In this document: in pieces, positions 1 to 37,114 of the stretch | Position numbering within the stretch: position 1 is the stretch's first letter | Layout: each line of letters opens with the position of its first letter | Assembly (NCBI GenBank): GCA_050084515.1 | Contig: CM114271.1 | Span: forward strand, 25,668,001 to 25,732,000 | Length of the DNA stretch: 64,000 bases | Reading direction: 5' to 3' | DNA from: Blasia pusilla | Taxonomy: Eukaryota | The notes under the pieces: generated by a model | What the model saw: the letters and a program-made list of their open reading frames with translations, nothing else | The model's database searches: none | What the model was told of the DNA's origin: nothing | Program-made: the position numbers and the translations under genes

Positions 1-639
1 TCCTGATTGTAACCACGTCAATGTGGCCGATTTGGCGTTGAGTGAAAACTATATAAGTTTGGTTGCCCATATCTATTGTCAAAGGGCTCTTCTTGTAGTG
101 AGATGGATCCTAGGTGGCATTGTTGGTAATATCCTAGGTTGATGTGGCATATTTAGTCCTAGGTGGCTTGCTGCGTCAAAGCGGGCATGGGAGGGAATGG
201 ACACCCGTATAGCATACAAACGTTTGGTGTTTGGTGCCCAAGTAAGGTGTGTTGTGTTTGGCGGGAGAGAGTGTGCACTCGAGTGGGATGGTTGGAGTTT
301 CTCCAAGAGTGGGAAGTTCAAAGATTAGGGGATTGGGGAGGTCAGGAGGCTGAGAACAATTTGTTGTGAACGTTGTGAAGACTTTTACGCCTAGACCGCA
401 AGCTCCGAGTTTCTTCTGAAGACTCTGCTCTCTGAAGATTGTTTCATCTTCTTAGCCGCGGTTAGCTCTCTCTCTCTGTGCCTTTGCGATGTTCTCTCTC
501 TCTTTGCGCAACATCTGGAAGAGCCTTGCAAAATGACGTTCAACTTCTTCTCGGACTTCAAAGATCGCTCCACTCTGCAATGTTGTCTTGCTATTGACCC
601 GAGTATGTCCGAATAGCTTGGTGGCTCCGAAGGTTGAAA

Positions 640-1046
640 CTTCCTACGATGTACCGGTGTTGAAACTAGACCTACACTTTGTCGCACGCGCTCTTCATCT
701 ACAAACCACTCATCGTTCACTTTGCTGACACTCCAGTTGAAGTATCGCAGGAGAATACCAGCTTCAGTCCTTGATAGGGAAAGGAAATTTGTGATTTTGG
801 TCATCGCTTCTTCTTGTCGCTGGCGAATGTCCCTCTCATTGAGAATTGTGTAATTGGACTGAGGAAGCCTAGAACTCACATGAACGTCAAGTAAAGGGAA
901 TCATCGAAACCGTAGTCCGGCTCATCATCGTCATCATCACTGCCCATGGTATTCTCACTCGCCTTGTCGTCCTCTTCATTCATATCATAGAAGTCCCCGT
1001 CTGATGTTCCATACCAAGCATCCTGCATTTCATCTTCGGAGTCCAT
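640..1046 (-). pseudogene. ARIADNE-family RBR E3 ligase 5' fragment (acidic N-terminus + UBA-like region), truncated before RING1
   Basis: ATG at 1046 gives MDSEDEMQDA...DDDDEPDYGFDD. After a frameshift near 885 it reads YTILNERDIRQRQEEAMTKITNFLSLSRTEAGILLRYFNWSVSKVNDEWFVDEERVRQSVGL, resembling plant ARI7/ARI8 N-termini. No RING cysteines follow. Confidence 0.8.
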
Positions 1047-5966: not shown

Positions 5967-7004
5967 CCTCCCACCAAAACCGTCTGGCTCGTTGTAGGAT
6001 CCGATCCCGCTCTCTAGCACCCAGCAACGCGTTGGTACTCCAAGACCACTTCAATCGTGAAGACCATCATCTCCTCACCGGCCTCTGGATCTTAGGACTC
6101 TCCATCATATCTCGCCATCGAAGTCTCAGAAATTTGGCTCTCCATAGCCAACAAGCCCAAATAGGCTGACACATGCCATCCTGGGACCAACTCCTCATCA
6201 CTCTCACCATGCCAACGATCTCTAGTTGCATCTTGCTGACTCGGGCATGGGTTACGGCTCAAACCATCCCATCCTGGTTGAGCGTCCCAAGTCTATGCAC
6301 CACCTAGAAGTCATACTCCAACAACAAAAGAGCCCACCTCGCAAGCTTCCCTGTAAGCTTGTCCGACTCCATCAACCACTTAAGTGGCTGATGATAAATA
6401 ATGATGGTAAAGGGATATGTGACAACCCACACTGCAACCAAGCACTCACCCTCATACGAGCTATACTTTGCCTTTGCAGCGTTGTTCGAGCAACTAGCGT
6501 AAGCCACCACAAACTCTCTACCATCATCGTCATGTTGGATGAGCACGGCTCCAAGCCCCAACATGCTCCAATCGGTATGCAACTGGAAAGGACGCACCCT
6601 GATCGGTCTCCTCAATATGGGCGCGAACGTCAATCTATCCTTGAGCATCTGAAATGCTCACTCCTTCTCATCCTCCCAGTGCCACTCCTGAGCCACCTTG
6701 GTCAGCAAGGTCAGCGGCTTTGCAATCGAGCTAAAACCCTTGACGTATCGTCGATAGAAGTTCGCCAATCCCATGAATGCACAAACTCGACTCACATCTA
6801 TAGGGCGTGGAATGCATGAAATAGCCTCTACCTTCGTCTGCTACACACCAAGGACCCTTGGGTATATCGTTTGACCCAGATACTCAATCTGGTCGTAGAA
6901 GAACTTGCACTTGCCTAGCTATAGCTTCAGCCCACGTAATTGCAATCGTCAAAACACCTCCTCTAGATGTCGCTCATGCTCCTCAACCGTGGCGCTAAAG
7001 ACTA

Positions 7005-7975
7005 TGATGTCAGGTCCATCGCCTGACCCAAGACATGATGTCGTGATGGCTCCAATTGTGATGGTACTAGCTTCACTCCTATGGGGAATCCCATCATTTG
7101 CTCTCGCTCATCGGCGTTGGGCTCCACCAACCTCTGTACCTGGTCATCCCAAACCAAGCCAGGTCCGGCCTCCTTGAATGCATGGGAAGCGGCCTCCTTG
7201 AATACATTGTGAGTTTTCTCGCTTCCCATGCATTGAAGGAGGCCGGACCTGGCTTGCTCGTGGCATGCCAATCCTATTGACCACAGTCAACGGTGGTCGA
7301 TCATCGTGCCTCACTACCTATGATCGACAGCCCGGATCCAATATAGAATCCACCAACAAATAGAAGGGACACTCCACTCTCATGTAAGCCCTCCACAACA
7401 CCTCATGTGGTACCAAGTTGGTCCACTAAAGATGCGGTCGGTGTGCTCTAGAATCTACACTCGCCATATCTAACAACACTCTTGGGCCGATCCATGCGCG
7501 CACTTGATGTGGACTCGTCACCATGCAAGACCTCGAATCGCCCAAAATTGGAAATTCTCCAAAATGCATGGTGGAGAATGAGGCTGATGCTCCTGTAAAT
7601 GTCGCAAGATCCGCATTATCTCCCAAAACAACCTGGACCGAGTGTAAGCTAACCCGCTATCTCATCCAACACTCGATTGGCCCTGACACGACCGACCAGT
7701 AATGACCAAATCTATGGTCCCTACCCGCTCCAAGTCTTGCGCCCTCAACAATAAAATGTCCCTCGGTAGGGAACTTTGGTAACCCTGAATGGTGGACGCA
7801 GACAACAAGTCGGGAAAATGGAGGCGTAACTGCGCCATATGGTGAAGTGAAGCGCGCCTCTCAACATCATCAATCTCCATATACACGTACTGTTGCACGC
7901 GCACTCCAACGTGCAAAAAAGCAACTAAGCCAGTGTTGATCCCTCCAAAGAGATCCAACACCCGAATAGCCTCCT
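7005..7975 (-). pseudogene. E1 DNMT3-like cytosine-5 methyltransferase domain (catalytic PC mutated to SC)
   Basis: IRVLDLFGGINTG, DLVITGRSCQG, HRPHL, EREQMMGF, HVLGQAMDL; frameshifts present. Confidence 0.85.
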
Positions 7976-8622
7976 CTGGGATGCACCACACAATCAGGGT
8001 GGTGTCCAAAGGGGTCATAGCAGCACTCCTGCCTACTTGGGGTTCCTCTGACCCATCACACTCTACGACAGATATCTCGCTCCACGCGGTCTGCACATGC
8101 TCAATGGCTAAGCGTCGAGCCCCAAAGTGGCACCTCTCCTCCACGGACTGATGCGTCTACCATGACACTCCTCTCCATAGACATGTCAAGAATGGGAGTA
8201 TCTCTGCATGGACATGTCCCTCGATCAAATCACTAGGCCAAGTGATGGCACTGCTAAATGCTACTAAGGTCACCATCTCTCCTTACCGTCGCTCGATCAC
8301 TGCACTTGTGAATCGAACGGGTAATGAGCTAAGGCGTCCATCACCTGACTACCATCCTGGTCTGTAGGACGCTGACTCCTCCCAATAATCCAAGGAAACC
8401 CCCATTGGGTATAACACTGCTCCACCATCCAAGACATCGTAGGACTCTACATCAGTCACTATCGCCTTGGCTCGCACCACTGACTCATCTGTAAGATGTC
8501 CCGGGCGAATCCTCACCACGACCTCTTTTCGGGTGATGTACTCGCTCGACTCAAGGATTTCTGTATCCGGAATGGACAACACTCCATATCGGCTCTCGTC
8601 AATCCCAATCCTTTGAATGACG

Positions 8623-8989
8623 TGTCATGACCATACGGATTATGTCGTAGAGTATAGTGTGCTAGTAGAGGCCATTCCTTATGTAGGACCGTAGTGGCTT
8701 GGTAGAGATGCGGTTTCATACATAGGGTTGGGGGTTACTCGAGTTGGGGTGACTTTCCCAGAGGGGCCGCTCTTAGATTGGAGGATATAAGGTGGAGTGC
8801 ACTCAAAGAACAGTCAGTCCTTTGAGTTGAGCCTGTTGCGTTGGGAGTTAGCCTTGGTAGTGAGTAGAGCCCTTGGCTATGGTGTTTCCCGCAAGCTTCG
8901 ACCTAGATTCTCCCATCGTGGAGTGGGTTTGGCTCAATTTTATGTGATTCTTTACATATTTTATGACAGTAGGTCTTTCACGGATTTCA
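8623..8989 (+). repeat. E2 repeat A1 (copy A2 at 17931-18294); contains TATA-like gatataag at ~8784
   Basis: Near-identical direct repeat; both copies end cggatttca. Confidence 0.95.
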
Positions 8990-10733
8990 CTCAAAGAACT
9001 GGAGTAGATCGATGGTAGCTTCGATTGTAGATCAGTAGGATCTGGTTAGGGCTGATTGTGTACTCAGCCGTGGATGTTCGTGGCTTGTGGCCTATGTTGG
9101 AGGTGTGACTCTGGTGCGTGGTTGGTTGAAAAAGAAGCGCCTTGCTGAGAGCTTTCCAATGTGTTTTAGATCGCCGGATTTTGTCAAGGGAGTTGGAAGT
9201 TATCAAGGATTGAAGATTATGGTTCGTGTTCGACGGTTTTCTGATGTGGAGAGCTTGGAGTGCGGAAGCTCTGTTGAAGTTCATCCAGATCGGGTGAGAG
9301 GTTCCTGTTGTTACTTGTATTGTGATCTCATGTGAAGCTATCTGCTGGAGTGTGTGGAGCGTTGCGGATTTCAGCGTGCATGAAACTTGGCGGAAGCGTT
9401 ATCGGATTTGCGATTATGGAGGTGTATGGACAACAAATTTGTCTGATTTTTAGCTCAGAGTACAGAGCTTGATTGTAGCTGATTTTTTGTGGATAGATAG
9501 CTATGGTGGTCAATTGAATTCTGGTTGAAACAAATTTGATTTCGGTCACGGATTTGTGAAGTAATTGCTGATCAAAATTTTGCGGACTAGCTGAAGGTCA
9601 AGCTATGGTGGACAGCGGATCGGAGGGGCTGGTTGGTTGGTGACTTGTTCATTGTTGGAGACGCCTATCCCATTGGGGGCGCCCTGGTTGGGCCTCTCTC
9701 CATAGCGAAGCATGGCGAACGGGGCGATAGGGGCATGTCTCGAGCATTTCGAGGCTTGGAGGCAACTCGTGGTAGCTCGGGGCGAGTGGGCTCGAGAGGC
9801 GGAGTAAGGAGCAAGGAGCAAGCAAGCAAGCTTGCTTGCTTGAGCGTGAGGCAATTTTTGCAAGATTTGGGATTTGAGTGTTGCATAACTGGTCACCCAT
9901 CTTTGGGCTATTCTGCTTGGAGGACGCTTAACTGCTGAGTTCTTAACTATGCCAGTGTACAGACTGTTGTAGCTCATTTGGTGCTATTCGGAGATGTGTT
10001 AGGCGCTTTATGCATCTCAGGTTTTTGGTTGATGTACCTCTAGCGCATAGTACGGTGTAGCCTCTCCATGCAGGTGATATTTTCAGTTGCTGCGAGTTTG
10101 ACTAGCATGTCATCGACCCGCGGCGGAGTAGCTATTGCGTTAGAATTGTGTGGTGGGTTTTGTGGATTCAGGGGGCACCACGTTTGGTGGATTATGTTAC
10201 CTTGATTTCCATTTGCGATTGGAGGATTGTCGTTGGACTTCCTGTGTTTGGATCCCCTCCATCGGTGCTTCTTGCTTGCGCGCCCATTGTTAGGGTTGAC
10301 GCTGATTTCCAGAGTAGTGTTACTCCTGTGTGCTACCGGTAGTGAGGCTGGAGGGATGACAAGTAGACCGTGGGAGGCTTCTTGTGGTGATGACAAGTTA
10401 GGTTGCCTACACCCATAGCTAGTAGAGCTAGAATAGTATAGCGACATCGACGTCACTTGGTTATTTGGTGGTGGTGCGGCATCGGCGTTGGTCATCACGG
10501 AGCTCTCGGGTGGTCTGGTTGGGGACCGTAGTGCGGAGAGTGGTGGTTTCACACGGATTGGATTTAGGTATCGGCTACCTTTTCCACTTCCGACGGTTGA
10601 TGAAGAGGAGGACGAGGGTGTTCCAAACACCGAGTCTTCTACGTTGTTATCGAGTGTTGCAGCTCCATTGATTTGCGACATGGACGGTGGATATGGGGCC
10701 ATGAAGGGCCCACGCGATACTGGTGCAGTGTAA

Positions 10734-11900
10734 ATGGGCACCATTGAGTTGGAGGACTTCATGCAGGAGTTTGATACGTGGTGTGATATGCAAATGTTTG
10801 AACGCCACGTTGTTTACACCCTTCTTGGCTTGGAAGGGTTGTTTGACACTTGGAAGGACCACCCATGGATGATTACCATGAGTTTAGGAAGGACCATGTT
10901 GCTGAGATTGAGGCATGGAGACAATATTGGTCTCCAGGCTATGTGTCTATCACCCATGGTGGTATTGGTAGTAGTGCTCCTACTATGCCAGCCAGCCCGA
11001 CGTTGAGTGGTATGAGTACGAGCCGGAGTGGGGGTACCAGTGGAGGTAGTAGTGGAGGTAGTAGTGGAGGTACTGGTGCCCCACCATCGTTCAGCCCGGT
11101 TGCAGAGTTCTTCAAGAGGTTGAAGAAGAACTATCAGGGAGTGAAGACGGAGAAGTTGAGGAGTCTTCAGGAATTTGAGCGAAAGACTGGTGAGAGTCTT
11201 CGTGAGGCATACACTCGTATGCGACGCTTGATTTCGATTACCAGGGTGTGATCGAAGATCAGCGATCGATTTTGGTATGGGATCTTGGATAGAGATTTGT
11301 GCCGTAGGGTACGTGATGCTACTCTTATGAGTGATGATTCACCCACATTGACCCATGTGTTTGCTCTATCTGAGAAGATTGAGCTTAACATGGTGAAGGA
11401 GAGAGTGGTGACATCCGCATTCAGTAGGGATACAAATACTACTTCTTGTGTTCAGTAGCCCACCTCACAGTCTCGTAGTAGTGGTGGTGGTAGTAGTAGT
11501 GGGAGTCGTGGGGGTACACGACCGACCTCCAGTCCTAGAGGACACTTGCGCAGAGACCATTGCCTTCATTTGCTGCCCCGCAGCAGGGCGATCATGTTGG
11601 ACATGTGGAGGTGATCATGTTAGGAAGTTTTGTCCCCAAGAGGATGGGAGACGGACTTTGGAGGATGGGCCTCAGTCGGCCCCAACTCAGCGTGATCATT
11701 GCGGGAGACCAGGTTATCCTCGAGAGCGTTGCTTTGATCTTCATCCAGAGTTGAGATCAGGCCGCGACCATGGTGGAGTAGCTCCGAGAGGCCGAGGTAG
11801 TAGAGGTGGTAGGGGTGGTAGAGGTGGACCAGTGGTTGGAGAGCCTACGGTGGCTACCCCTACCACTACGACAAAGTCGCTATGGCTTTCAGGATTGAGC
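10734..11900 (+). pseudogene. E2 Gag with two zinc knuckles
   Basis: GTIELEDFMQEFDTWCD, FERKTGESLREAYTRMRRL, CWTCGGDHVRKFC, and (C)DHCGRPG(H)PRERC; frameshifted. Confidence 0.85.
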
Positions 11901-12499
11901 GATTGGAGCAGTTGGCTACTATGGTGGTATCCAAAGATAGATCGTGTTGGGAGCAGGGCTTCCACCTCTTATGGAGGGGATGATCTCTCTTATATGGCGA
12001 GAAAAGATGAGTTGAGGCATCAGCTGCGATTCTGAGGAGCCACTCGGCGTGAGCCACGTGGTGCTCTTGGGAGTTGGACCCACAGAGGGGTGAGGCCGGG
12101 AGGCGGGCTAGGCTTCCCTAGTCATTCTTGTTGTGCGAGGTGCTTAGGACTCCATCCATGGTTCCTCGCAGCCTATTGAGAGCAGTGGGGACCGAGGCAT
12201 CTAAATCGCGTGTAGTAGACACGGATGCAGCATCCAGTGCAATATTGCAGATGGCAACTTTAGTGTTGGGATCCCCATTGTTTTCGGCCACGGAGCTGAT
12301 GGCTTTAGGAGTTGACTTAGCTCCTGTATTTCAGCAAGCAGCCACGTTGTGTGAACGTGGGGGTGTTACTGCTACACGTGTTGAGATGGATGAGGGTGTT
12401 GCGGTGGAGCGACCCTCTATGTCAGGTGTAGCATTGAGTACCAGTGCTACTTGGCAGGCAGCAGCGGTGAAGATGGATGCATTACCAGCCCGGCCAGCC

Positions 12500-12970
12500 A
12501 TTGATCATGAGAGGCTTACACCTGGTGTATGTATGTTGGACAACCGGAGTGGGATCTTCCGATTGGTGAGTCCTACAGGACAGGTGTATAGACCAGATAG
12601 AGTCTTGTTAGACTCTGGTGCCCAACCTTTGATGTTGGGAAAGGCGGCATATATTGGTTTGGGTATCCGGAGGTCAGAGCTTGAGCCTTGCCCATTCTAG
12701 ATTCAAACCTCACTTGGAGGAGCCAATGATAGGTCTCAATTCATGACACGGGAGAATTTTCTGTACATTTGAGACCAGATCATGCGACTGATAGCTCCCG
12801 GTTGGGAGTATCTGCGGTAGTCACATCAGCCGAGTCGTATGATGTACTAGTTGGAGGAGCAATATTGTACCCGATGGGTTTTCAGATGGATTAGTGGACT
12901 GAGACAGCGTCTTATAGACCTGGTTGGCAGTCCGGGATGGACGTATGAGCCAAGTTCCTGTGAGATTTAT
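12500..12970 (+). pseudogene. E2 aspartic protease
   Basis: RVLLDSGAQPLMLGK and ESYDVLVGGAILYPMGF. Confidence 0.85.
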
Positions 12971-13332
12971 TTATGGGGCTCGACCGAGGAGGGTCTACAC
13001 CAATAGTGTTAGCATCTGTGGCTGGTTTTAGTGGAGTAGTCACTTGGCCAGGAGACTTTTTGGAGGGTAATGTTTCTGCTATGGATTCTCCTGCGCATGA
13101 GGAGATAGAGGAGGTCCCTATTTTTGCAGCGGTGGCATCCTCATTGTTAGATGTGCCACTTTGGAGTTCAGGCGGTGCACTATGGCAGGAGGCTGATCGC
13201 CTAGTGCAGGAGGCTTGGTGTGAGGTTGTTATACCTCACGAGGAAGAGGAGGCCCCACGGCGGACTCCTACTTTTGGTCCAGTTGGGTTATCCCCTTTGG
13301 ATACTACACCCATTGTATGGCAGTATCCGCTA

Positions 13333-14285
13333 GAGGGCATTTGTGTGTTAGATCTCTTTGGTGGGATTAGCACGGTTTGGTCGATGTTGCAAGCCGGTAT
13401 TCTGTCTTGGAGATACGTGTATGTGGAGCGAGATGAGACGGCCCAGAGAGTCTCATCCCGACATATTGGTCAGTTGATGCAGAGATATCCTGAGTTGTTG
13501 CCGCCATCAGCTATTCGTGGGTACCAACGTGCTTTGCCGTCACACATTGCATTGTTGGGGGCGCACGACCTTGAGAGGGTTGGTCCTGTGGATTTGGTGA
13601 TTGTTGGATGGCCATGTCAAGGTCATACACGTGTAGGTCGTGGTGAGGGATTACACGACCCTAGGTCTCGATTGTTTTGGGAGATGTTACGGGTGTTACG
13701 ACATCTTGAGTTCATCAGCACGTGCTCGGCTTACATTCGTCGAGAATGTTCCATTGTTGGGTGACACTTGGACCCAGATGATGGCGAGTGTTCATGAGGT
13801 GCGGTCTTGGATTGGACCAGTGGTGTTGTTGGATGCAGCGCGAGTTGGCTCGCATGCACATCGTCCACGCTTGTGGTGGATAAACTTGTTGCCTAGGGAG
13901 GTTCTACGTCGAGCATATGATGCAGTGCAGCGGGATCCTTGCCTTACCGTGGATAGTATCTTGGATACTGGGCAACTTTCTCAAGTGGTGAGGGTTATTG
14001 ATCGGTCACCCATGGCAGTGGTGAACCGTGTGGGCCAGCCTAGGATGGCACTACCCACATTTGTGAGTTTTCCCTTGTCACATGCCTACAGAGAAGGTGG
14101 TCCGGGGCTTGTATTGGATTCTCATGTGCGACAATTGGTGGAGCCTAACGCTGATAAGAGAGAGCATGCAATGGGATTTGCTACTGGTGTGACAGCGGTT
14201 GCTTCTATTTCTGAGGCTTCACGACGTCATGTGTTGGGTCAGGCCATGGACCTGAATTGTTTGACTTGGATTTTGAGTCTTGGTA
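13333..14285 (+). pseudogene. E2 DNMT3-like cytosine-5 methyltransferase domain within pol
   Basis: Motif I VLDLFGGIST, motif II YVERD, motif IV DLVIVGWPCQG, SRLFWEMLRVL, motif VI ENV, motif VIII DAARVGSHAHRPRLWW, motif IX REHAMGF, motif X VLGQAMDL. Confidence 0.92.
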
Positions 14286-14619
14286 TGGCGCTTAGCGGCT
14301 CAACCGGACTATGTCGTGGGTCTTCCACCCCTTGTAATGAGCTCGATGGCTACCGGGGCCGGTAGAGGCATCGGTGGGGCAAGGAGAGTAGTATTTTGCA
14401 TCCTTGGAGTAAATGGGATGTAATGGGGGCATGTGGAGTTGGTTGCTCATCTTTGGTGGAGGAGTTATTTGCTCGAGATGATGGTGTAGCTAAGGGTGTA
14501 CCATCTTGTGAGGGGGTTGCGTAGCAGCCAATGGCATCGTCCTCTCCTTCTAGTGTGCCAGTGGAGGAGACTTGGGAGCCATTACTTGAGCCCAAGCTTA
14601 CGGGAGGTGAGAAACGACG

Positions 14620-16000
14620 CTTGACAGAGTTCCTACGTGCTTATAGGAGTTGTTTTGCCTTTAGCATGAAGGAGTTGGGTTCTTTGGTTGTACCCGGTAT
14701 ACGGATTGATTTGGCTAGTGATACACCAATCTTCCGTCGTCCCTACCGATATAGTGATATAGAGAGGGACCTGATTCAGAGTAGGACGTTGGACCTTTTG
14801 GAGGATGGATTAGTGGAGTTGTCGCATGGAGAGTATGCATCAGCCACTATCATGCCTGCTAAAAAGGATATGCATGGCAACTACACGGATACGCAGATGT
14901 GTGGAGATTACCGTCCTATCAATCGGAAAACCAAGGCCGATAGGTATGCCATCCCTACACCTGAGGAGATCTTTGATGTGTTGGGACAGGCAAAGATTTT
15001 TAGTACTTTGGATCTTCGGGCAGGATACCATCAATTGCCGATTCGGGAGAGTGACAAGGCCAAGACAACATTTTGGGGTGTCAACTCTCATGGCAAGGAT
15101 TGTTTGTACCATAGGAAATTCTTACTCTTTGGGTTGAAGAATGCACCTGCCGAGTTTCAGAGAGTGATGGACAGGATCCTAGGAGGGTTGGATTTTGTTC
15201 GGTGTTACATTGATGATATCTTGGTGTTCAGTAACACGGTGGAGGAGCATCAGATACATTTGCAGATGGTGTTTGAGCGGTTGAAAGCTCATGGTCTACG
15301 TTTGCATCCAAGAAAGTGTAAGTTCTTCCATGAGGATGTTGAGTACTTGGGTCATGTGATCTATCCAGGTGGTTTGGGAGTTCAGCAAGCAAAGGTGGAG
15401 GCTATTGCACTTATTCCGCGTCCGGTAGATGTGAGTAGAGTTCGGGCATTCATGGGATTGGCAAACTACTATCGGAGGTATGTGAAGGGATTTAGTGCTA
15501 TGGCAAAGCCTTTGAACCAATTGCTGAAATCAGATCAAGAGTGGCACTAGGGAGATGATTAGGAGAGAGCTTTTGTGGAGCTTAAGGCCCAGTTGGTGGC
15601 GGCGCCTATCTTGAGGAGACCTATCAGAGGGCGCCCATTTCAGTTACACACTGATTGGAGTAGGTTAGGACTTGGAGCGGTGTTGACACAACATGATGAT
15701 GAGCACATGGAATTTGTGGTGGCCTATGCAAGTCGTTCGAATAATGTAGCGGAGTCGCGCTATAGTTCATATGAGGGAGAGTGCTTGGCAAAGAGTGTGT
15801 GGTTGTGGCACACTTTAGGTGTTACTTGTTTGGCACAGTTTACCCTTGTTATTCGATCATCAGCCGCTCAAGTGGTTGATGGAGTCGGACAAGCTTATAG
15901 GGAAGATCGCACGGTGGGCTCTTATCTTACAGAGTATGACTTCCGGGTGGTACATAGACTGGAGTTGCCAACCTTGATCTTTGATGGGTTGAGTAGGAAC
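14620..16000 (+). pseudogene. E2 reverse transcriptase + RNase H (Ty3/Gypsy type)
   Basis: MCGDYRPIN, FSTLDLRAGYHQL, FGLKNAPAEFQR, YIDDILVFS, FQLHTDWS..GLGAVL, AYASR. Confidence 0.95.
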
Positions 16001-16229
16001 CCATGTACTAGCCAAGAGGATACAACTGGGGCTAGATGGCATGGCGAGGTTGATGAGGAGATGGTGCCAGGTTGGCATGCATCCGCCTTTTTATGTTGGT
16101 TAGGGGTGGACTCTAGTATGGAGGATCACATGATATCTTACTCTAGTCAGAGGATAGATGGCTAGCCTTCAGATCCTAAGGTTGGAGATGGTGGTACGGA
16201 TCAGCGTGATATTCATGATGATGCGTTGG

Positions 16230-17649
16230 TGTTGGAGTTCCTACCGACCAGTAGGGTGCCAGGCATAGTGAGTGCCAAGGAGCGAGACCGTGTTCTTCAA
16301 CGTGCTAAGAGGTATCGATTGGAGGGAACACATATTCTCCGCGTGTGGGAGGATGGTAGAGTACAAGTAGTGCCACATTTGGCTCAGAGAGAGCGTATTG
16401 TGCGACATGCCCATGAGGTGTTCGGACATTTTGGGGTAAAGCGTACGTATAGCTTACTCCTTGGCCAGTATTGGTGGCGTGGCATGCATACTTAGGTGCA
16501 GCAGTTGGTGTCACGTTGTATGGTTTGTGACCGGGTGAGGGCATCATTCAATGCCCCTACACCAGAATTACACCCCTTTCCTATTATGGGGTTGGGTTAC
16601 CGTTGGAGTGTGGACTTTGCGGGACCGTTACCGTTGACTGTACGACATCATCGATATGTGTTGGTGATGGTGGAGCACTTCTCCAAGTGGATTGAGTTGG
16701 TGGCATTACCGGACAAGGCAAGTGAGGGAACGACATATGCGTTTCTTGATAGAGTGCTTAGTCATTTTGGTGCACCAGCTGAAGTGCTGACCGACCAGGG
16801 TACAGAGTTTCAGGGTGAGTTTCAGGTCTTGTGTGACAAGGCGTTGATTGATCATCGGACCACGTCTCGAGATCATCCAGAGGTGGATGGTTTGGCTGAG
16901 CGTGTGGTTCGATGATGAAGAGGGCATTGCGCAAGTATGGCCTATAGAAGGGGCATCTTGGAGACAGGATATTCGATTTGCCATGGTTAGCCATGGGGTA
17001 TAGGTTCAGTCGCCAAGCATCCTTGGCTTCCTTCTCACCTTATTTTTTGTTATACGGTTGAGATCCAGACTTGCCAACAGCAATTCGTCGGGAGTCTAGT
17101 GAGGTGGTGAACCTTGATGACCTAGAGATGTGGATGAGAGTGTGTTCTCGGCCAAGGCGAGCTCTTCGGAGAGTTATGCCAATGACCTTTGAGAATCTTG
17201 CCATTGCTCAACACAGGGATACGTTGCGGTATGCAACCATTCGGGGTGGAGGTTATCGACCATCGATTCGTAGGTTCCATGTGGGGGACTATGTCTATTT
17301 GCAGCAGATTGCACCGACAACGTTGGATGTGACGGCCGGCCGCACTATTTTACGAGTGCGCGAGGTGTTAGCTTCTGGAGTTCTCATGTTTGAGGGTCGT
17401 GATGGAGTTGTTTGGAAGGACCATGTGCGTAATTGTGCACCATGTCATCTTCCAAATATGGATGGTAGTGTTGACCCAAGCTTAGCCATGATACGCGCTA
17501 GCTTGAGGTGCATGTTGTGTGGGTCTGCTGGTAACGCAACCCGTATGTTGGTGTGTGATCGGTGTTCTAGGGGTTGGCACATGATGTGTTTGACTCCACG
17601 TATGGATGTTATTCCTACTGGAACGTGGGTTTGTCCTCGATGTACTTAG
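16230..17649 (+). pseudogene. E2 DDE integrase with C-terminal PHD finger (17509-17643)
   Basis: HAHEVFGHFG...CMVC (HHCC), WSVDFAGP, LTDQGTEF, GLAER; ends CMLCGSAGNATRMLVCDRCSRGWHMMCLTPRMDVIPTGTWVCPRC (C4HC3). Confidence 0.93.
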
Positions 17650-17822
17650 GAGAGGTAGATGACTTGATCTTTGCATGATATGAATTACAGATGTGCGACT
17701 AACGATGGGGCAACCTAGCACCCGGCCTTCTGATTCGGGCACCCAAGAAGGTGTATAGCATGTAGTAGATGTATAGGGCTACCTGGGAGTTAGAGGGACC
17801 TAACCGCCAATTAGGGGGGCGA

Positions 17823-18400
17823 GTTGTGGTACACTTGTGTTTGTGGATACTCTCGTCTATGTTATGTATGTATGTGAGTATGGTATGTCAGCGATGTATG
17901 TTGTATGACGATGTGGATTCGCACGACAGTTGTCATGACCATACAGATTATGTCGTAGAGTATAGTGCGTAGAGGCCATTCCTTATGTAGGACCGTAGTG
18001 GCTTGGTAGAGATGCGGTTTCATACATAGGGTTGGGGGTTACTCAGTTGGGGGTGACTTTCCCAATAGGGCCCGCTCTTAGGTTGGAGGATATAAGGTGG
18101 AATGCACTCAAAGAACAGTCAGTTCTTTGAGTTGAGCCTGTTGCGTTGGGAGTTAGCCTTGGTAGTGAGTAGAGCCCTTGGCTATGGTGTTTCCCGCAAG
18201 CTTCGACCTAGATTCTCCCATCGTGGAGTGGGTTTGGCTCGATTGTATGTGATTCTATACGTGTTTTATGACAGTAGGTCTTTCACGGATTTCAGTTGTG
18301 GTACACTTGTGTTTGTGGATACTCTCGTCTATGTTATGTATGTATGTGAGTATGGTATGTCAGCGATGTATGTTGTATGACGATGTGGATTCGCACGACA
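17823..18400 (+). repeat. E2 3' end: B1 (17823-17928) + gt + A2 (17931-18294) + B2 (18295-18400), preceded by PPT aggggggcga
   Basis: B1 and B2 are both 106 bp and essentially identical. Confidence 0.95.
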
Positions 18401-21400
18401 GACGCTTTCCCCAACATCAGGGGTTGCGCTCCTGAATCCAACAAGACGCGTTGCAGACTAAAAGCTCTACCTCCTCGACTCACCAGCAGGAAGACCTCTC
18501 CTTGGTTATCCAACAAAAAAACATGAGGAGATGCCATGGCGCGCTCTATCGCGGGTCTAGCGGGCATCTCCGCCATCCTAGCACCCAAGCCTGCCATGAA
18601 TCTAACGTGGACGGCCCGAGCATTAGCTCCAAGGGCAGGTCCATCACCTCCTTTGCAATCACCTCTGAAGGTGATGCAGGAACTCCAACTCCACGCTCAC
18701 ATAGCGTAGCGGCCAGCCAAAAAACCTTGGCGGACGTACCTCCCAACGTCATAACATCAGACGCAAAAAATAAAGGAGCACGGTACACAATGGTGGCCGC
18801 CCCCAACAACGTGCTTGACACATGCTTACATTCACTTCTCTCATCGCCCTCCGTGCCTCCACACCAACAACATCACCAACTCTCCATGAACTTTGATGAG
18901 GACCTATCGATGGGGTCCTCATCGCCTTGGACAACGTGAAAGACTGAGGAAGCCTGGTTTGTTTCTTGGCGTCCCCTCGCTATGGATTCAACTTTGCAAC
19001 TGCTCCACGCGTCACAATTGCAGCGGCCTCCATCTGGGCAACCCCACACATCCAACCAAGATCCTCCATATCTCTGGCTGCTCCATATGATGTCAATGCC
19101 ACAGATCTGGCATCGGGTAACCTTAATGCCATAGCGGCAATCTACTCATGTAGTTGTTGTATCTGAGCACCCATCCTAGCCTCATGCCCGACATCTTCCT
19201 CAACGCATCTACATGTTGGGACTCTACCTCCTCCACGGGCAACTCCACCACCCTGTCGGGCAACTCCAACTCCTTGTCCCTTAACGGGACCACATGGTGC
19301 ATAATCTGTAGGCCCACCCAAACCAGCTACTCGCCCTATTGCCCTCTTTGGCCCTCGGTCTGGACGTAACTCAAGGTGTAAGCTGAAACACCTGGCGCAT
19401 GTGTGACCATACCTCTGACAATAGTCACAGTGATAACCTCCTTGTGCAGCACCATCTCCTCTTTCATGCTGAGGCATACGTCCATGACCCTGACGAGTGC
19501 AATCGCACTGATGATGGGCTCCACCATATGACCAACATGTCATTGTAGGTGGCTGCTGTTGAGCCGCATATGAAAGCGCACGTCTCTGTGGCACAGCCTC
19601 CCGATATCCTCCTTGAGCTTGTGGTGCCATATATAGTCGACCTATCTCGGAGTCTAAGTTGTTGCACAAGTAGTACAGAGAATCGTGATTGCTCTCGCCC
19701 AGAACCCATGATGGCTACGCTCTCCTCCGCCATGTTGCGCTCCTAAAAATATCTTTGAACGTAGGGGAGGTGTTCATAAGAAGCACCCCTCTCGCACCTG
19801 TGTCCGTAGGGTCGAGTCCAACATCGCGTACCATGACTGGATAGCATGAGCCTTTGTCACCCCCTGAGTGACGTTGATCAACTGGCGCAAGCGAGTGTAA
19901 GCCTCACAAAAACTCTCACCCGGACGCATGTGGAAGTCGTGGATGCTCCGCAACTTCTCTGTCCATACCCCTTGGTAGTTCGTCCTCAACTCAGCAAAAA
20001 ACTCAACCACGGGGTTGAACCTAGGACAAACCCGACTACACGGTGAATTGCTCCAATGCGAGTTACCCCTCCTAAAACATTGGAAGAGGAAGAAGCCTCT
20101 CCTCACTCCTCCTCCTCATCTGGGAACGGCTCCGTCCATGACACATAGTATGGGTCATAGTAGAGTCGCCATGCCTTAGTCTCTTGGGCATATCTGTGGG
20201 AGAACTCATGGTAATTGTCCATGGGTGCCTCCTCTAAATGCTGGAACATACCGTTCCATGCTGTAAACGGGTTGAACTCTCTAGAGTTCCTAGCCCGCTG
20301 TGAGTCGTGCCAACTTCTAAACTCCGCGATGAAGTCGTGCAACTCTATCGTGCCTACTACACGTGAGAACCTACGTGGTCTTATCCCCTGGTTGTCCATC
20401 TCTTACGCCCAAGCAGTAGGACTACTCAATGTGAGTGGCAAAGCACTACTCAACTTCTCTACGCCCTCCTCCTCTTCTGAAGATGACACAGAAGGAGGTG
20501 AGGTGGTCCCTCACGTGGAGACCCTTGAAACCTCGCACCACTCCAAGTAAACCCTCCAGAGCTACTCTCTGGTCCACTACCTTGCCTCTCAAAATTCTGA
20601 AAGGACGTGGTGATGGCCCTCGTGCCCCTCATGCCCCTCTCACACGATCACTCCCAATCTCGCGAGTAATCCCTCAATCACTCAAACTAAAGATACGGCA
20701 CTCAATCTACACTCTCTCACTAAGACGTGTGTTCTGCGGCAACAAGCAGCGTGGTACGGCAAATCAACTGATCTATCGTCTTATCGACAAACCATCCTCA
20801 ACTTTGGACATCCCACACAGGTCTATGTCCCCTTAATCCATACATCATCGATGCTCTCAGCATCAGCACAAAACCCAATATCCCAAATAACTTCCCAATA
20901 CCCGAAAATCCCTCACACGTGTAGGGTAAGAGACCAGAATGGGTAACCTGACAATAATGTCGATGTCCCTCCTCGTCAACTATAAATCTCGACCCCAACC
21001 TGGTCGTGAAGACAACTCCTCCAATGAGCAAGTCGTACTCCTCTCGTATTGACGCTGCTCAAACCTCCTCGATGTGCACTGCAAGTCCAGCGGTCCGGTG
21101 CGGCACCAGCGGCACGGAACGGCTACAAATGGTAGGGGCTACGGCACTCGAAGGCATACCCTCCTCAATCAGAAATTCACACGCTCTGCTCCTTAGTGAA
21201 GGAGCAGCTCCACGATTGAGATGGTGTAGTGCGGCCACGAGCCGCACGGCGTGGCAATCGGCGGTGCGTTGCGGCTACGGGCATCACGGCACGAAACTCA
21301 ATCTTCGTCGAGCGGTTACGAATCACAACATAGCAGCATGAAATGAAAACTCAAACACCATTATCCGAGATCACCTGCCATGACTGGTTGATGACAAAAT

Positions 21401-22088
21401 TGCGATGACGGTGGCGGCTAAAACAAAGAATCAACGGTCGTCGTGGAAGACCCTCCACTCCGTAATGGCGGCAATGGCAACCAAGTGTGGACAATGGCTG
21501 AACGCGGCTTTGAGCAGCGCTAGGCGGCGATGGAGGCCGAAGGTGGACCATTGAAGGAGACGGTTGACCATTGATGGTGATGGTGGACCATTGACCATTG
21601 ACCGTTGACGATGACTTTGACGGCACAGCGGCTAGTTTAGGGTTTCAACAATTTAACCCTAAAAATCGCCTTGCAATGGAAATTTTTCAAGATTGACCAT
21701 AACTTTTTGCTTGCAACTCCAAATGCTACTATCTTTAGGTTTCACATCATTGAAAAATATTTTAACCCTAAAAATTTGTAGTAAATCCCAACGCTACATA
21801 AATTTTGGCAACGCTCGCACTAATTTCTCCCAATAAAATGTGCTTCCGCAGCACCGGCATGGGGCAACCTGCCTCCATACTCAATCCCTATCAAAAATTG
21901 GGTAGCGCTTTTGCGCGCCACTCTTCCACACGAAAAATTGGCGAAGGAAACATCACAAGTAAGCGGTTCTTGCTCCGGTGCGTACTCCCATCAACCGCTG
22001 AATAGGGAATACAATCCCCAACCTACAAAACTAGCAAGTGACTAGCGAGCTCCTCGATGAACTCTCTTACTCACTCATTCTCTCTTTG

Positions 22089-22591
22089 TAAAATAAGATC
22101 CAATATCTCTCGCAACACCATAGTTCTCACATGTGTGCACTCTCACAATGTCAAACCAAACCCACTCTCCTAATGAGAGGATTGGGTTACACTCACAAGG
22201 CAAGAGACTGTAGTTCCGCCGCCTTGTCCCAAGAGGTTCAACAAAGAGAGAATGAGCTCTCAAGCTCTCTCCTTGAGGTATACCCCTCCCCTCTCCCAAG
22301 CTCTTTCCATGGTAATCTATGCTCCCAAGTCACCTCCTTGGATCTTGACCTGATGTAGGATGTCAAGGGCCACTTACCAAAAATAGAAAGTTGATCATAT
22401 ACTCAAAATGGTACTTGCCTAAAATAGTAAGTTTCTCAATATGGCTCCAAATGAACCGAAACGAAGGGGAAACCTGCTCTCTCAGATTTCTCGGGGCCTC
22501 AGTAGGTCATCTTCTACCTCCTGAGTCTGTCCTCCACTACTTGAGAAGACGTTCTACTAAATCTCACCGATCTATCCTAAAAGACATGACA
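22089..22591 (-). repeat. E1 repeat A1, homologous to the E4 A repeats
   Basis: Reverse complement aligns by eye with 52811-53324. Confidence 0.9.
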
Positions 22592-26371: not shown

Positions 26372-29300
26372 TTACTTGACTCCAGCTTTATCCCTCGCCG
26401 CTTCTTCCTCGGCATTGGTTACACATTCAGATGCAAGGGCACGAACTGCTCTGCGGTCTACCCCTCTGCGTGAATATTCTCGCCATCTCCTGGTCGCTGC
26501 AGCTGTTTTGGCAGCTCTTTCACGGGAATACTTATCTTGAGACAAGAAGTTTAGGACCTCGAGTTAGTATGAATAAAGGTGAGACAGTAAGAGAAGCTAC
26601 CTCGAGTCATCTCTCAGATGAAGAATCCTGACAGAGACTCCGTATGTTTGAGCATATCTTCGACTTCACTTGATGACAGTTATCAAAGCTGGACATATCG
26701 ATTCAGATACGATCTATATTGTGTAAGAAACAGAATTTCTACTTGTCGAGTGGTCAAGAATAGTACCTGCAGCAGATTTACTGCGCTCCTGGTCTGGCGT
26801 AGAGTTCCAGTTCACTTTCCACCACGCTTCCCTCCCAGTTTTGCCACCCTCTTTCATCATTCTTACTCGAGCTTGATCCTGAGTTTACGAAATCCTCCGT
26901 CAACCAGACAATTATTCTTTTGCCATATCTACGCTCTTTCGAATTGAAGACATACCATAGATGTATGTGGGCAAAACTTTTCAAATTCTGAACTCTCGCT
27001 CTTCTTGGAACAGTGGCGTCTCTTCTGGACTTGATAGAGCGCAGATGAAATATTTTTTCAGGAGTATAGCGGTGTTGAGCTGGGGAAACAGTACTCTGGG
27101 ATAACTTACCAAAGCCCTGGCCTGACGCTTGTCCCATCTCATGCTCGCCTGTGATGAGAATGAACAGCTTGTTTAGTACACCAGGGTATTCCATCTGAAC
27201 ACCAGTACTAAGCTGCAGCAACAATAAACCTCGAAGGAAACTAAAATGGGTGAAACTTTGACTGTCGTACCTGCGCGAAGACATCTGGAGATTGATACCC
27301 CATGCCCGAAAGCATCAAACCCACCTGATTGGAATAAGGGGAAAACAAGCGTCAAGATTTATCTTAAGCTGACAGGGCGTTACAACTGATACGCAGCTAA
27401 GGAATCCAGAAAGAAAGAGTGACGGAGATATCAAAGATAAAGAATAACCGTATCGACCGAACAGCACATTTGGACCACTTCACTGGTATCGGACTGATGA
27501 CAGATCTACGATGTACTTCTAGTAACAACTCTGCAGCAGCTCGCCTTCAGATTATTTGTGAAAGAATGGTAAGGGTTCAAGAGAATTCACATTGACGCGC
27601 TCCATCCTTCGCATTTCATCTTCTAAAAGAGCGAGCTGTGGAGAAGATATCCAATGTATACAATCTACAGGGCTGCAGTACAAAGAGGACATGTCAAGCT
27701 CAGAAAAGAGAGTCAGCAAAATCTGATTGCTTACACTTGACACGCGAGATGTGAAGGAAAAAGCGTTTCAAATCACAAGTTCAGTTGAATTCACTTCATA
27801 TCATGATAAGAAACACACGGCCAACTACAAAGATCAATAATTGTCTGTTTTCCTGATCGTCAAATATGTAGACACGCACCACTGAACATGAAGGAATGTT
27901 TCTCCAAAGCTGTGCACTTACAACAGCAGTGCAAGACTTGGCAGGTTTCTCTAAAGGAAATGCTCCTGCTCTTGTACAGATTTGTCATCGAGGTAAGAAT
28001 TCGGGGTTTTTTCAGAGTGGAACCATGTCATCAGAAGAAGGGAGGCTATAGATGTCTTACCATGTTTCAATAGCTACCTGCACAAGGCGTTGATTCCCAC
28101 ATTGATTATGAACTCTTGCCCGACCATATTCATCTTCAATCTCAAACGTATCTGGCGCCGTGTTTCCACAGTTCTTGCACCCTACTCGACCATTTAAGGG
28201 GCAATTAGCGGAATAGACAACAGAGCCCTCCTAGAAGGGAATTGATTTCCACAAAAACCATTTCCATGTCGTCACACCTCAAGACCACGCAAGGACAATC
28301 CAAAACCATTTCGATCTCTGACAAACAGATGCGAATCGAGCACTTGCCGAACCGAATCTATGAAGTAGCTGTATACCTATGCAAGTAAATTCGTCGACAA
28401 ATGCGTGATCTCGTTCAGCATCAATATCTTTGAAAGGATTAATAGCTGTAAGTGTGTAGCCGTTGATTTCGTCATAAACAAGACGCTGTTCTGGATCACT
28501 TAAGACCTGCACAGTGCGTACCAAAACATTTAGTGGGGAGTTCGGTTCAAATGTAGCTAATGCATAATTATCAGAGAAACCAGACGAGAAGAGCTTTTAG
28601 AGACGAGACGAGGAGACAAGGATGACAGCCTTAGAATATTGGTATTTGCTGTAAATGGAAAAGGCCTACGCAAATTTGTTCCTCGTACCTCGTATACTTC
28701 ATTAATGAACATACAAAAGTTGCTCACGGCGGGATCATTTCCACTCAGGTCGGGATGGCAGGTTTTCATGCAACAGTAGTATGCTTTTTTTATCTCTTCC
28801 GGTGTAGCATCAGGCGTCTGTCAACCACGAAACAATTTTTACATTCAGTCGGAAGAGTATGAGCTCATCAAGGGGTGAAAAAAAGAGTCATGGCATTCCA
28901 ACAAAAGACACAGATAATTAAGATATCAATGATGTCAACCGCAGATTCCCTCAGATAAATTCTCGTTTGTAGTTTGATCCTGAACATTGCAAAAACTTCT
29001 TAACTTCGTTACTGTCCCACTCAAATTTTGAGTCAGACATTAAGAAAATTCGCCAGCGGATGCTTAAATTCACGCTGTCAGGGCTTGAAAGGCTGGAGTC
29101 TTGAAATTTTCTTAACAGATTGCAACTTCTGACGCTTGCCATGCACGCTACCATCTTTAAGTCAACTGAAGAAGGGAGCCTCATACAAATATATTTGCAA
29201 TCGCAGAGGACTTTCAGGTTCTCTCTAGAGGTTTCAGGAAAGAAACTGACAAGTAGATTATGACACCTGGTTGGAGAAGAGCTTCAAAGCTTCACTAGCA

Positions 29301-30186: not shown

Positions 30187-32921
30187 CGTCCTGAGGACCA
30201 AAGATGAGATCTAGTGGGGTTTCGACGGAATATGAGACTGTGTGACCACCAATGTTCCAACTTGAACCTTGAGCTCCCCAACCTGGAAATAGTTCTACTG
30301 CAACCAGAGGGTTGTCTCGTTCCGTCTTTAGAATTTCTACACCAGATTTCCAGTGAAGCGCCTCAAAGAGAAGCAACGGGCATTCAACTCTAAAAATACC
30401 GTCTGGCAGCAACTTTCAATTTGGGCTACTTGACAAAGACACTGAATGTCGAAGCCTCGCAATGCAAAGAAATTCATGTGAACTCTCAAATCCTCTGTGA
30501 AACGGAATGTATAGAGCAAGGTGCAGAAGGTGCACAGCGCGCTGAATCTTCCGTAAAATCTTTCCCCTCCCTGAAATTTTGGTCGATATGTTGCTAAGGT
30601 GTACCACTCCTACGTGGTGGCACACCCCCGGATCGCGACGTACGACTCAGGGCGAGCTCTAGCGTTCTCACTATGCGTTGACGGGGCGAACTGAAAAGAT
30701 ACTGGATCCTAAGAAAACAACTCTCGCAATTCACAATTGACAAAGTCGGCAATTCCTGAAGTGTTGATGGACAGATTTCAGGTAGAGATGTCACAGTTGA
30801 AACCTGCGATGACAGGTCTTCCAGGCTTCATGGAGAGCAAGATATTCATGAGAAGCGAAGCTGGTCGCAGCTATTCCACTAGAGCACACAAGCTCTAGAA
30901 GTCACCCTCTGGAAGTCGCCAGATTCTAGAATCCTATTCCCAGTATCCCGGTAAGCGTTACCCTTCCAACTTTTCGCCAGCTTTTCAGTACTTCAACCCG
31001 CACTTTCGTTTGCGGGCGGTAAAACGCGACGAAATCCCATGACGCAATTCCATTAGTCCAACTAAACACCATTCAACCTCTCCGCTCCACCAATGAACAC
31101 CCTACATTCGCTGTTAGCACCAGGAACACCACGCTGCTCTCCAACTACCACATACGTAGATGCGGCTGCAACTCCGTAACTACTGTTTCCACGTGCGTTC
31201 TCGGACCAATCCCGGAAGCAAGTGAAGTTCCTGCTGCGGAACAGATTCATCGGTCGCGTCACAACACAAGTAATCCCCCGCCTCTTTTGCGCCTCTGTTT
31301 GTGTGGCTCCTGAAGCATCGCAGCAGATAGGCTCGGCTCTCGCTCAGGGAAAGGAGAGGAAAAGATCTTGCACCCGCGCGCGGCCCGCGCTCTCCACTCC
31401 GCGCCTGCGGGAAATGAAGCGGGGTTGCTCGCTAAGTAAGCGGACTTCAACCCTCCTCCATTACACCTTCTCCGCGATTTATCGAACGGCATTGCCCACC
31501 TTCTCCGGCTCCGCGCATGTGGGAGTATAGCGGGCCTTCACTAAATAAGCGGTCTTTCGAAGTTCTCCGCGATTGAGCGAATGGCGCGCGGCGCTTTCAA
31601 CTGCGAGAGAAGGGTTGGTTAGTTAACCACGGCGCTCGTAAGTACGAATGGTTTAAAATTAACCGGTCCTAAAATCACATCATATCAAGTTCAAGTGTTC
31701 TTCTTATCTTTAATTATATTATTTTGGGAGAGTGTTTTTTTATTTGCAAATATTTTTATATGATAACAAGAAAAATTTTTTTCCTTATACGGGATAACAA
31801 GAAAAAAAAATTGTATTAACAAATCTTTTCATTCCCCTATATGGCACGAGTTGCCCACTAGTACAAATATCTGCGGTATCCCGATCACCCAAGATTAAAG
31901 GCAGAAAATTTCAATTATATATCATGATCAACATTTTAATTATGAAAAATGGTTTTTTATTTTTTATTTAAAAAAATTGATCAATTATGATTTAAATTAA
32001 TTTTTAATGATCTAATGTATCAATTGATGATTTAAATCGAGAAATTCTATTGGTTGAGAATATCATGTGTCAAAAAGAGATGTAATTGAAAATAAAAAGG
32101 TTTTCTCAACAAGAAAATAGATTCTCAATCTCTTATCAAATGATTTTATAATATTCTAACAATATCATGAAAAGAGAAAGAAAGGTATGAATGGCAATCA
32201 TCATCCAACTTTTAAAAGAATTAGATAGTTTCTTAGAGAGTGGAGTGCGAATATAAATCCAAGGGGATTCTTTACAAGGTTTCCTAACTAAACTAAACAG
32301 AGAATGGATAGCAAAAGCCCTTGAATTATTAAGTTTTACTAGGGGGACGTAGTAAAGTAGACTCAATTTTTGTATGTGTGATCACATATGGAGAAGTTAC
32401 TTTGCACTTGAATTGTTCAAAGCATGGATGTGGAGTTTGCATATTGTCCAATTTAGAATTTGGTAGTGAATTAAGTTAATAAGGTGCCATGAGAATCAAA
32501 TTGCAACTAAAGGAGTTGTTAGGCAAGGCTCATTAAGCTTTTGATGCGCTTGGATATTTATGATAGGCTGAAATGGGAAGCAATTACCTTGCATCAAATG
32601 TGAATGATTGCACTTGGTCTCTTATTCTAGTTATGAGAAGATATGAAAATTACTCATGGTAATTGTAAAGGATAGAAATTAAACTTCCAAAAGAGTGAAT
32701 ACAAGTTATTGCTAATAAATTCAGGATAATCAAACGTAACTTCAATAAAACACGAGAAGACGTGTGCTAAGTTGATCGTAAATTTAAAAATACACGTGAG
32801 TTGAAGTGTAGAAGTAAATTATCTCTTTGAAAAGTTGATTATATCATTGGGACTCACTTTCATATTTTCTAGCATAAGAATATTAGAATATTCCAATAGC
32901 AAATTTCACACAATAGATATT

Positions 32922-36600: not shown

Positions 36601-37114
36601 GAATACCTGTAGGGTCGACGAAAGATCGGCGTATCACTAGCCAACTCAATCCGTATCCCGAGACCCTTCAGCGTACCCAAGTCTCTCATACTGAAGGAAA
36701 AACAACTGACATGCCCTCTCAGAAACCTATGAACTCACCGTCGCTCTCCTCCTATCAACTTGAGACCTATCACAGGCTCCCAAGTCTCCATCGTGACCTC
36801 ACTCGGAGAGGATGCAACCTCCGGCTTTGGTTGCTATGTAGCAACCCTAGCCACCTCCGCAACAGCCACTCCACTCTAACCACCTACACCATGCTCCACA
36901 TCCAAAAAATGAACATGTGCTACTCTAGCCGCCTTCGCACTCTCTACTCGAACGACGTCCCAGGAAGTCCATGGGTGCATATCTCTCCTCGTCTCGCCCC
37001 CAGCCAATGCCTGTATAGACCCTGTAGGCAATGGTCCAACTCGTGGACGTGACGGCATGGATGACACTTGCATCCATCTCGCTCAGCCCATACCTAGGTG
37101 ACTATCCATGTGAG

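Follow-up and report, generated by a model that had tools for sequence, protein, structure and literature searches.

KnitGypsy-Dnmt3, a retroelement of the alga Klebsormidium nitens, has Gypsy domains and repeats "the same as that of a DIRS retrotransposon" (de Mendoza et al., 2018, PMC5890265, Fig. 4c legend). We found no second description of a permuted Gypsy layout in the literature, where the name KnitGypsy occurs in that paper only; a 2026 preprint, in the passage concerned, only cites "streptophytes (Gypsy-DNMT3)". Here we describe three complete elements of this kind, E2, E3 and E4, in a 64,000-nucleotide (nt) stretch of Blasia pusilla DNA (GCA_050084515.1, contig CM114271.1, positions 25,668,001 to 25,732,000; hereafter the window, with positions counted from its first nucleotide). 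Compared by description only, they resemble KnitGypsy-Dnmt3 in being Gypsy-type, in carrying a DNA methyltransferase (DNMT) inside pol and in having repeats in the order A-coding-B-A-B (PMC5890265); the named proteins nearest to theirs come from Marchantia polymorpha and Sphagnum fallax, whereas the host of KnitGypsy-Dnmt3 is an alga. The layout, which an earlier note on this DNA supposed to be undescribed, is thus already known, but the main text on KnitGypsy-Dnmt3 (PMC5890265, supplements outside our scope) does not address its cause and gives no mechanism, analysis of primer-binding site (PBS) and polypurine tract (PPT), target-site duplications (TSDs) or single-B forms. The family-wide architecture that we report is real, and it places the integrated ends of these elements away from their priming sites.

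In textbook retrotransposition of long terminal repeat (LTR) elements, the integrated ends are set at the two priming sites. DIRS, PAT and Ngaro insertions are not known to carry integrase-type TSDs. The window elements share with PAT, Toc, kangaroo and Ngaro the split direct repeats A1...B1-A2-B2 and an end-to-end joint inside the element (PMC4157794), but those elements encode a tyrosine recombinase, whereas here we find a DDE integrase, TG...CA ends and 4-bp TSDs. Like canonical Ty3/Gypsy elements (Metaviridae), they have a putative gag (CCHC), reverse transcriptase (RT), RNase H, an H2C2 plus rve integrase, a PPT, TG...CA ends and 4-bp TSDs; unlike them, they lack two complete terminal LTRs and their integrated ends are off the origins of plus- and minus-strand synthesis. 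Self-primed minus-strand synthesis, which we predict below, likens them to Tf1/sushi elements and to the Tcn1 clade of mosses and club-mosses, predicted to self-prime (Neumann et al., 2019, PMC6317226), although Tf1/sushi and Tcn1 elements have paired LTRs and a chromodomain, while the window elements have permuted repeats, a PHD finger after the integrase and a DNMT. Finally, the integrases of prototype foamy virus (PFV) and human immunodeficiency virus type 1 (HIV-1) cut both strands at the internal CA...TG of the 2-LTR circle junction, giving processed ends (PMC1180852, PMC1905944). In retroviruses this junction is confined to circles formed as by-products, and the provirus carries its LTRs in full; in the window elements, by contrast, a junction with a 2-nt spacer is built into every LTR and sets the integrated ends. 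Two further comparisons were set aside: Troyka differs by its CG...CG ends and 3-bp TSDs, and the expectation that Dictyostelium DGLT-A has modular LTRs was not borne out by published passages on it.

Repeat search, direct reading and exact string positions show that E2, E3 and E4 share the layout TSD-A1-PBS-coding-PPT-B1-NN-A2-B2-TSD, in which NN is the spacer and the coding order is gag, DNMT, RT, RNase H, integrase and PHD finger (Table 1). All three run from TGTCA to CGACA between perfect 4-bp TSDs. A measures 366-513 nt and B 106-138 nt, and within an element the two copies of A are 95-97% identical and those of B 97-100%. The layout, coordinates, repeat sizes, termini and TSDs given in the earlier note are all correct by exact positions. 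Its impression that the A sequences are unrelated is borne out by a self-BLAST of the window, in which the A repeats of E2, E3 and E4 have no cross-match and only the last ~65 nt of B match. The 5' end (~22590) of a fourth element, E1, consists of A alone against an AT-rich flank, and its 3' part is gone beyond ~5997.

We then placed these repeats relative to the boundaries of reverse transcription. For comparison beyond the window, metagenome contigs were scanned with the RNase H-integrase open reading frame (ORF) of E3, yielding 62 loci, mostly of E2 type (numbered with the prefix L). In an alignment of the PPT-B-A region of E2, E3, E4 and one contig copy, B begins directly after the PPT and A ends directly at the PBS in all three window families and in the contig family. 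Two blocks are conserved: ~45 nt ending in AGGGGGGCG, which is the PPT, and the last ~42 nt of B together with the 2-nt spacer and the TGTCA of the A start. The PBS is not like a transfer RNA; its complement, 11-22 nt long, is in every family found within A, 26-31 nt beyond the TATA box (16 nt in E4 and E1, 14 nt in E3, 13 nt in E2, 22 nt with one mismatch in L019). Scored with tolerance for mismatches, this complementarity was reached by 0/500 shuffles in six of nine tests and by 5 or 6/500 in the three tests on mutated A1 copies, and in the E4 leader, folded by minimum free energy, nt 1-16 are paired with the PBS (z = -3.2). The arrangement is that of Tf1-type self-priming, with the transcript start placed by its distance from the TATA box.

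Since the PPT abuts the start of B and the PBS abuts the end of A, the LTR of reverse transcription is B+A, as the earlier note proposed. In full it reads B-NN-A, with U3 formed by B, the spacer and the first part of A, TATA box included, and R-U5 by the rest of A; in E2 the PBS-complementary segment (8815-8827) is inside A, so that A spans the end of U3, R and U5. Stranded reads are in keeping with this: sense RNA has a depth of ~60-190x over the interior, B1 and the U3 part of A2, so that B1 and the promoter-proximal A2 are covered at interior depth, and of only 33, 25 and 9x over B2, a soft comparison given that many paralogues contribute reads and that B1 is 97% identical to B2. A strong loose end of the RNA reads at the A end runs on into the PBS.

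The integrated ends lie elsewhere. They are the A start (TGTCA) and the B end (CGACA), an inverted pair TGTC...GACA next to the TSDs, whereas the RT-defined termini (B start and A end) are without TG/CA in E3 and E4. Inside the element, the B end and the A start come together as CA-NN-TG, and the spacer is exactly 2 nt in 10/10 B.A junctions (GT, GC and AC in the window; AC, AT, GC, GC, GC, AC and AC in contigs). TG...CA ends with a perfect 4-bp TSD are found at seven of the eight two-ended elements, namely 3/3 in the window and 4/5 in contigs (L019 AAGG and L007 TCTC, both B-A-B; L032 TGTT and L009 TGTG, both single-B); at L039 the TSD matches at 3/4 nt. Judged from their sequence, the ends used by the integrase are thus distinct from those of the reverse-transcription LTR and coincide with the CA-NN-TG junction within it.

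Related copies in the contigs show two kinds of 3' end. Using a module map from L019 (A, leader, PPT region, B) and flank clustering to define distinct ends, we cleanly classified 23 distinct 3' ends, of which six read PPT-B.A-B/flank and 17 PPT-B/flank; four of the six B-A-B insertions were each found in two separate assemblies. The claim that all complete elements end in B-A-B therefore stands for the window and fails for the related contigs, where 17/23 ends are single-B. Left out of this count were two loci with irregular ends. In L025=L027 (L027 12432-12687), ~30 nt over the B-end/NN/A-start junction are deleted between two ATGAC microhomologies. The right end of L018 (3361-3878) reads A2, PBS and inverted A[169..1] against the flank, its terminus being the CA of the inverted A start. 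L018 was presumably formed by fold-back extension of the plus-strand 3' end, with the PBS pairing with the start of R as it does in the RNA, and then used by the integrase; it suggests that the polymerase can lengthen the complementary DNA (cDNA) at its right end, where the integrase then uses whichever suitable CA end comes first. L016 is interrupted and L010 is too short to inform on the end class.

The 5' ends are uniform. At all nine distinct contig 5' ends the flank meets A, with the PBS or leader next, and in no case does B come before A; L039=L040 has lost internal sequence immediately behind the PBS. With the four window ends added, the conventional B.A-PBS form, which the earlier note had singled out as counter-evidence, was found at 0/13 5' ends. 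The mirror-image form A-B.A-PBS was likewise found at 0/13, as compared with nine clean A...B-A-B copies (three in the window, six in contigs). Nor was any solo A-B seen in ~0.5 Mb of contigs or in the window.

The A2/B2 joint varies between copies. Among seven E2-type B-A-B copies, five have a precise joint, reading A-end + A + (G/A)TTGTGG; L002 has one extra PPT nucleotide, and in L007=L015 the joint contains CGA from the PPT and a 17-nt filler that duplicates sequence ~30 nt upstream. In E3 the joint contains AC, the first two nucleotides of the PBS, and CGG; in E4 it is precise, with one shared A. This is the pattern that would be expected if the joint were made anew from slightly ragged cDNA ends, by end-joining or by a polymerase jump. 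The replicative copy (A-PBS...PPT-B.A-B) therefore holds one covalent joint of U5 end and U3 start, at A2/B2, where the origin of the minus strand abuts that of the plus strand. If the transcript ends in A2, the joint would be absent from the RNA and so would have to be remade every cycle.

We favor, with about even confidence, a linear route in which right-extended linear cDNA is cut at its internal junctions. The product of reverse transcription would be the usual linear cDNA, B.A...B.A, with ends that would not themselves serve as substrates for the integrase. The minus strand would be done early and the plus strand would be the last to finish, at the U5 end. From there the plus strand would sometimes switch template end-to-end, with 0-3 nt of leftover PBS or PPT sequence used in the switch; it would land on the free 3' end of the minus strand, which is complementary to the U3 start, and go on to copy B together with the junction. 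On each side, the outermost attachment (att) junction would then be cut by the integrase in the manner of a restriction enzyme. An extended cDNA would yield A...B.A-B, able to replicate; an unextended one would yield A...B, a dead end, since such a copy has no 3' R and cannot replicate. The linear route would account for the asymmetry of the ends, for the two classes of 3' end and for L018. More broadly, we give a balanced chance to the view that in a whole clade of DDE-integrase elements, reaching from streptophyte algae to bryophytes, the att sites have shifted from the LTR ends to an internal "circle junction", so that integration needs joined or extended cDNA ends and the integrase acts as a site-specific double-strand endonuclease.

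Several points weigh against the linear route. The analysis of RNA and short-read contigs revealed neither a cDNA intermediate nor a transcript start or poly(A) site, and every copy seen is degenerate, with activity inferred only. We know of no documented end-to-end jump onto a base-paired 3' end in this group, nor, to our knowledge, has an integrase of this group been documented to cut 100-500 bp from a DNA end. The drop of RNA over B2 is soft, as reads are not cleanly assignable between copies of B that are 97% identical. The A...B class comes from metagenome contigs and could reflect collapse of the B-A-B loop or a B1 x B2 deletion; all three complete window elements are A...B-A-B and none is A...B. 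Primary solo A-B insertions, which the model predicts, were not seen, in a sample that is poor for them.

The single-B copies might instead be secondary, which we consider conceivable but doubtful: recombination between B1 and B2 would have removed A2 and one B, or short-read assembly would have skipped the loop, and there would be only one integration product. The 3/3 complete window elements with B-A-B, against 6/23 contig 3' ends, are as this explanation would have it, and B, a direct repeat of 106-138 nt, would exceed common assembly k-mers when young. However, B-A-B and single-B copies interleave on a tree of PPT-B and have similar terminal branches (median 0.042, n=7, versus 0.040, n=13; Mann-Whitney p = 0.88; L009, L017-, L037 and L048, which are single-B copies with partial modules, and window E2 were left out of this test). 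The close pair L002 (B-A-B) and L003 (single-B) sits at different flanks, and two single-B insertions were each found in two separate assemblies (L032/L035 and L046/L055). The lack of solo A-B in the contigs and window also speaks against a secondary origin, and the 3-13% difference between B1 and B2 in contig B-A-B copies argues against collapse.

A circular intermediate, in our judgment unlikely, would be either a host-ligated 2-LTR circle or a 1-LTR circle opened at the internal B.A junction, the former giving A...B-A-B and the latter A...B. If 1-LTR circles are the commoner of the two forms, this would explain the excess of single-B ends (17 versus 6). The A2/B2 joint is composed like an end-joined U5/U3 junction, with PBS and PPT remnants and filler, and cleavage of LTR-LTR junctions is known for the PFV and HIV-1 enzymes (PMC1180852, PMC1905944). 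The earlier note had proposed a 2-LTR circle opened inside one LTR: its topology holds, the integrated form being a permutation of end-joined cDNA, but such a circle offers the integrase two identical B.A junctions, and use of the second would give A-B.A-PBS...B, which is found at 0/13 5' ends. Under unbiased choice of junction, simple arithmetic gives 9:0 in favor of A...B-A-B a probability of ~0.002, so that the plain circle version needs an unexplained bias. Faster collapse between copies of A could hide the mirror form, yet no solo A-B is seen. The mechanism is worth pursuing. The absence of the mirror-image form puts a strain on the simple circle model, and it is because A-B-A...B is unseen that we prefer the linear route.

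An unrecognized tyrosine recombinase acting as in DIRS, PAT and Ngaro is highly improbable: the A1...B1-A2-B2 order is as described for PAT and Ngaro (PMC4157794), but the elements have rve and H2C2 integrase domains, no Phage_integrase match was found in the 32 ORFs/proteins scanned (not every frame), and the TG...CA ends with 4-bp TSDs at 7/8 two-ended elements are marks of an integrase. We find it scarcely credible that the layout is an assembly artefact or a later rearrangement of ordinary BA...BA elements, given three unrelated A/B sets in one window with the same layout and each with its own TSD at the A start and B end, six more insertions in independent metagenome assemblies (four of them found twice each) and no conventional end among 13, even though short-read contigs at the locus do not bridge B-A-B. 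Those at the 3' end of E4 (95-252 nt) do not bridge it and none spans the locus; contigs of ~100-250 nt are too short, so read-level support at the E4 B-A-B is lacking. The joints listed from short-read contigs are accounted for by B1/B2 and family paralogy.

If the linear route is true, integrases can use an internal junction as a normal substrate, and split direct repeats follow from the place of opening, not from the kind of enzyme. A family could then also persist though most of its insertions are unable to replicate. On the broader view of a clade with internal att sites, LTR elements would have a third way of integrating, one that converges on the layout of repeats in tyrosine-recombinase elements and routinely gives dead-on-arrival A...B copies. 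For annotation, LTR finders that expect identical terminal repeats are expected to mis-call or miss an abundant bryophyte and charophyte family together with its DNMT genes, which distorts repeat and gene annotation.

The coding content was examined by Pfam domain search on natural ORF pieces (32 ORFs/proteins, sense and antisense, not every frame). The pol order RT - RNase H - integrase (Integrase_H2C2 plus rve) was found in E2, E3 and contig ORFs, and no tyrosine recombinase (Phage_integrase, PF00589) was found among the 32 ORFs/proteins in either sense; the assignment to a DDE integrase in the earlier note is thereby upheld, as it is by the 4-bp TSDs. A C5 DNA methyltransferase (PF00145) lies upstream of RT in E2 and in contig and Marchantia proteins, with the catalytic PCQ region aligned. 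The only domain C-terminal to the integrase in the E2 and E3 ORFs is a PHD finger; there is no chromodomain. One contig ORF has a zf-CCHC knuckle, the Retrotrans_gag match in E2 is weak, and no aspartic protease family was matched among the ORFs scanned. Among named proteins, the closest are hypothetical ones from Marchantia polymorpha and Sphagnum fallax; one of these shares 72% identity with an E2 RT piece, and another 63% with an E2 DNMT piece. Protein Atlas gave generic Gypsy clusters only. All copies seen, in the window and in contigs, are degenerate, with stops and frameshifts. E2, E3 and E4 are probably dead copies of a self-priming Ty3/Gypsy-type family with a DNMT and a PHD finger, whose nearest named relatives are in bryophytes.

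Table 1. Coordinates of the elements and their parts in the window (minus-strand parts of E3 are given in reading direction)
Element	Feature	Position	Strand	Remark
E2	5' TSD	8619-8622	+	GACG
E2	A1	8623-8988	+	begins TGTCATG; TATA ~8786; PBS-complementary segment 8815-8827
E2	PBS	8989-8999	+	ACTCAAAGAAC; self-priming type; 13-nt complement in A2, 0/500 shuffles
E2	coding region	10847-17646	+	degenerate, with stops and frameshifts
E2	gag-like	10847-11248	+	weak Retrotrans_gag match (Pfam)
E2	C5 DNA methylase	12964-13761	+	PF00145
E2	RT	14525-15547	+	
E2	RNase H	15563-16162	+	
E2	integrase core	16496-16912	+	
E2	PHD finger	17062-17646	+	
E2	PPT	17811-17822	+	TTAGGGGGGCGA; within ~45-nt block conserved in all families
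E2	B1	17823-17928	+	ends GCACGACA; last ~42 nt conserved in E2, E3, E4 and L019
E2	spacer	17929-17930	+	GT; in internal att junction CA-NN-TG
E2	A2	17931-18293	+	
E2	A2/B2 joint nucleotide	18294	+	A, of possible PBS or PPT origin
E2	B2	18295-18400	+	CA at its end
E2	3' TSD	18401-18404	+	GACG
E3	element with TSDs	32918-42612	-	
E3	TSDs	42612-42609 and 32921-32918	-	AATA (read on - strand)
E3	A1	42608-42131	-	
E3	PBS	42130-42117	-	
E3	RT	36027-36734	-	
E3	RNase H + integrase	34566-35966	-	
E3	PHD finger	33721-34170	-	
E3	PPT	33680-33670	-	
E3	B1	33669-33532	-	
E3	spacer	33531-33530	-	GC
E3	A2	33529-33053	-	
E3	extra nucleotides before B2	33052-33048	-	ACCGG
E3	B2	33047-32922	-	
E4	element with TSDs	52807-63123	+	
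E4	TSDs	52807-52810 and 63120-63123	+	GCTT
E4	A1	52811-53323	+	
E4	PBS	53324-53339	+	
E4	PPT	62334-62344	+	
E4	B1	62345-62472	+	
E4	spacer	62473-62474	+	AC
E4	A2	62475-62991	+	
E4	B2	62992-63119	+	
E1	element, split by E2 insertion	5997-22590	-	both ends approximate; E4-like (~80% identical)

Some features of single elements are recorded here. The two B copies of E2 show 100% identity over 106-108 nt, as against 95% between its A copies; by simple arithmetic, zero differences at 5% divergence has a probability of ~0.004, and gene conversion between nearby B copies is a possibility. Opposite the E2 leader and gag, the minus strand has four long ORFs (125-256 amino acids, 8991-11338) with no Pfam match, which may reflect skewed composition. 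The sense strand of every element is G- and T-rich, with a GC skew of +0.14 to +0.26 (8001-18000, 34001-42000, 52001-63000), and C>T and G>A prevail among the differences between family copies, as methylation-driven decay would give. The 5' region of E3 (41285-41684) contains about three tandem copies of a 104-nt unit and GC-rich 41-nt repeats. E4 lies inside a Helitron (52009-52790 and 63125-63475), and an ORF just past its 3' TSD matches Helitron_like_N (E = 7e-24). Sequence words of the window are also present in air-metagenome runs. Host features in the window are an ARIH1-type (ARIADNE-like) UBA-like exon (394-900, minus strand), a DnaJ exon (28560-28820, minus strand) and a long (GA)n tract (1166-1361).

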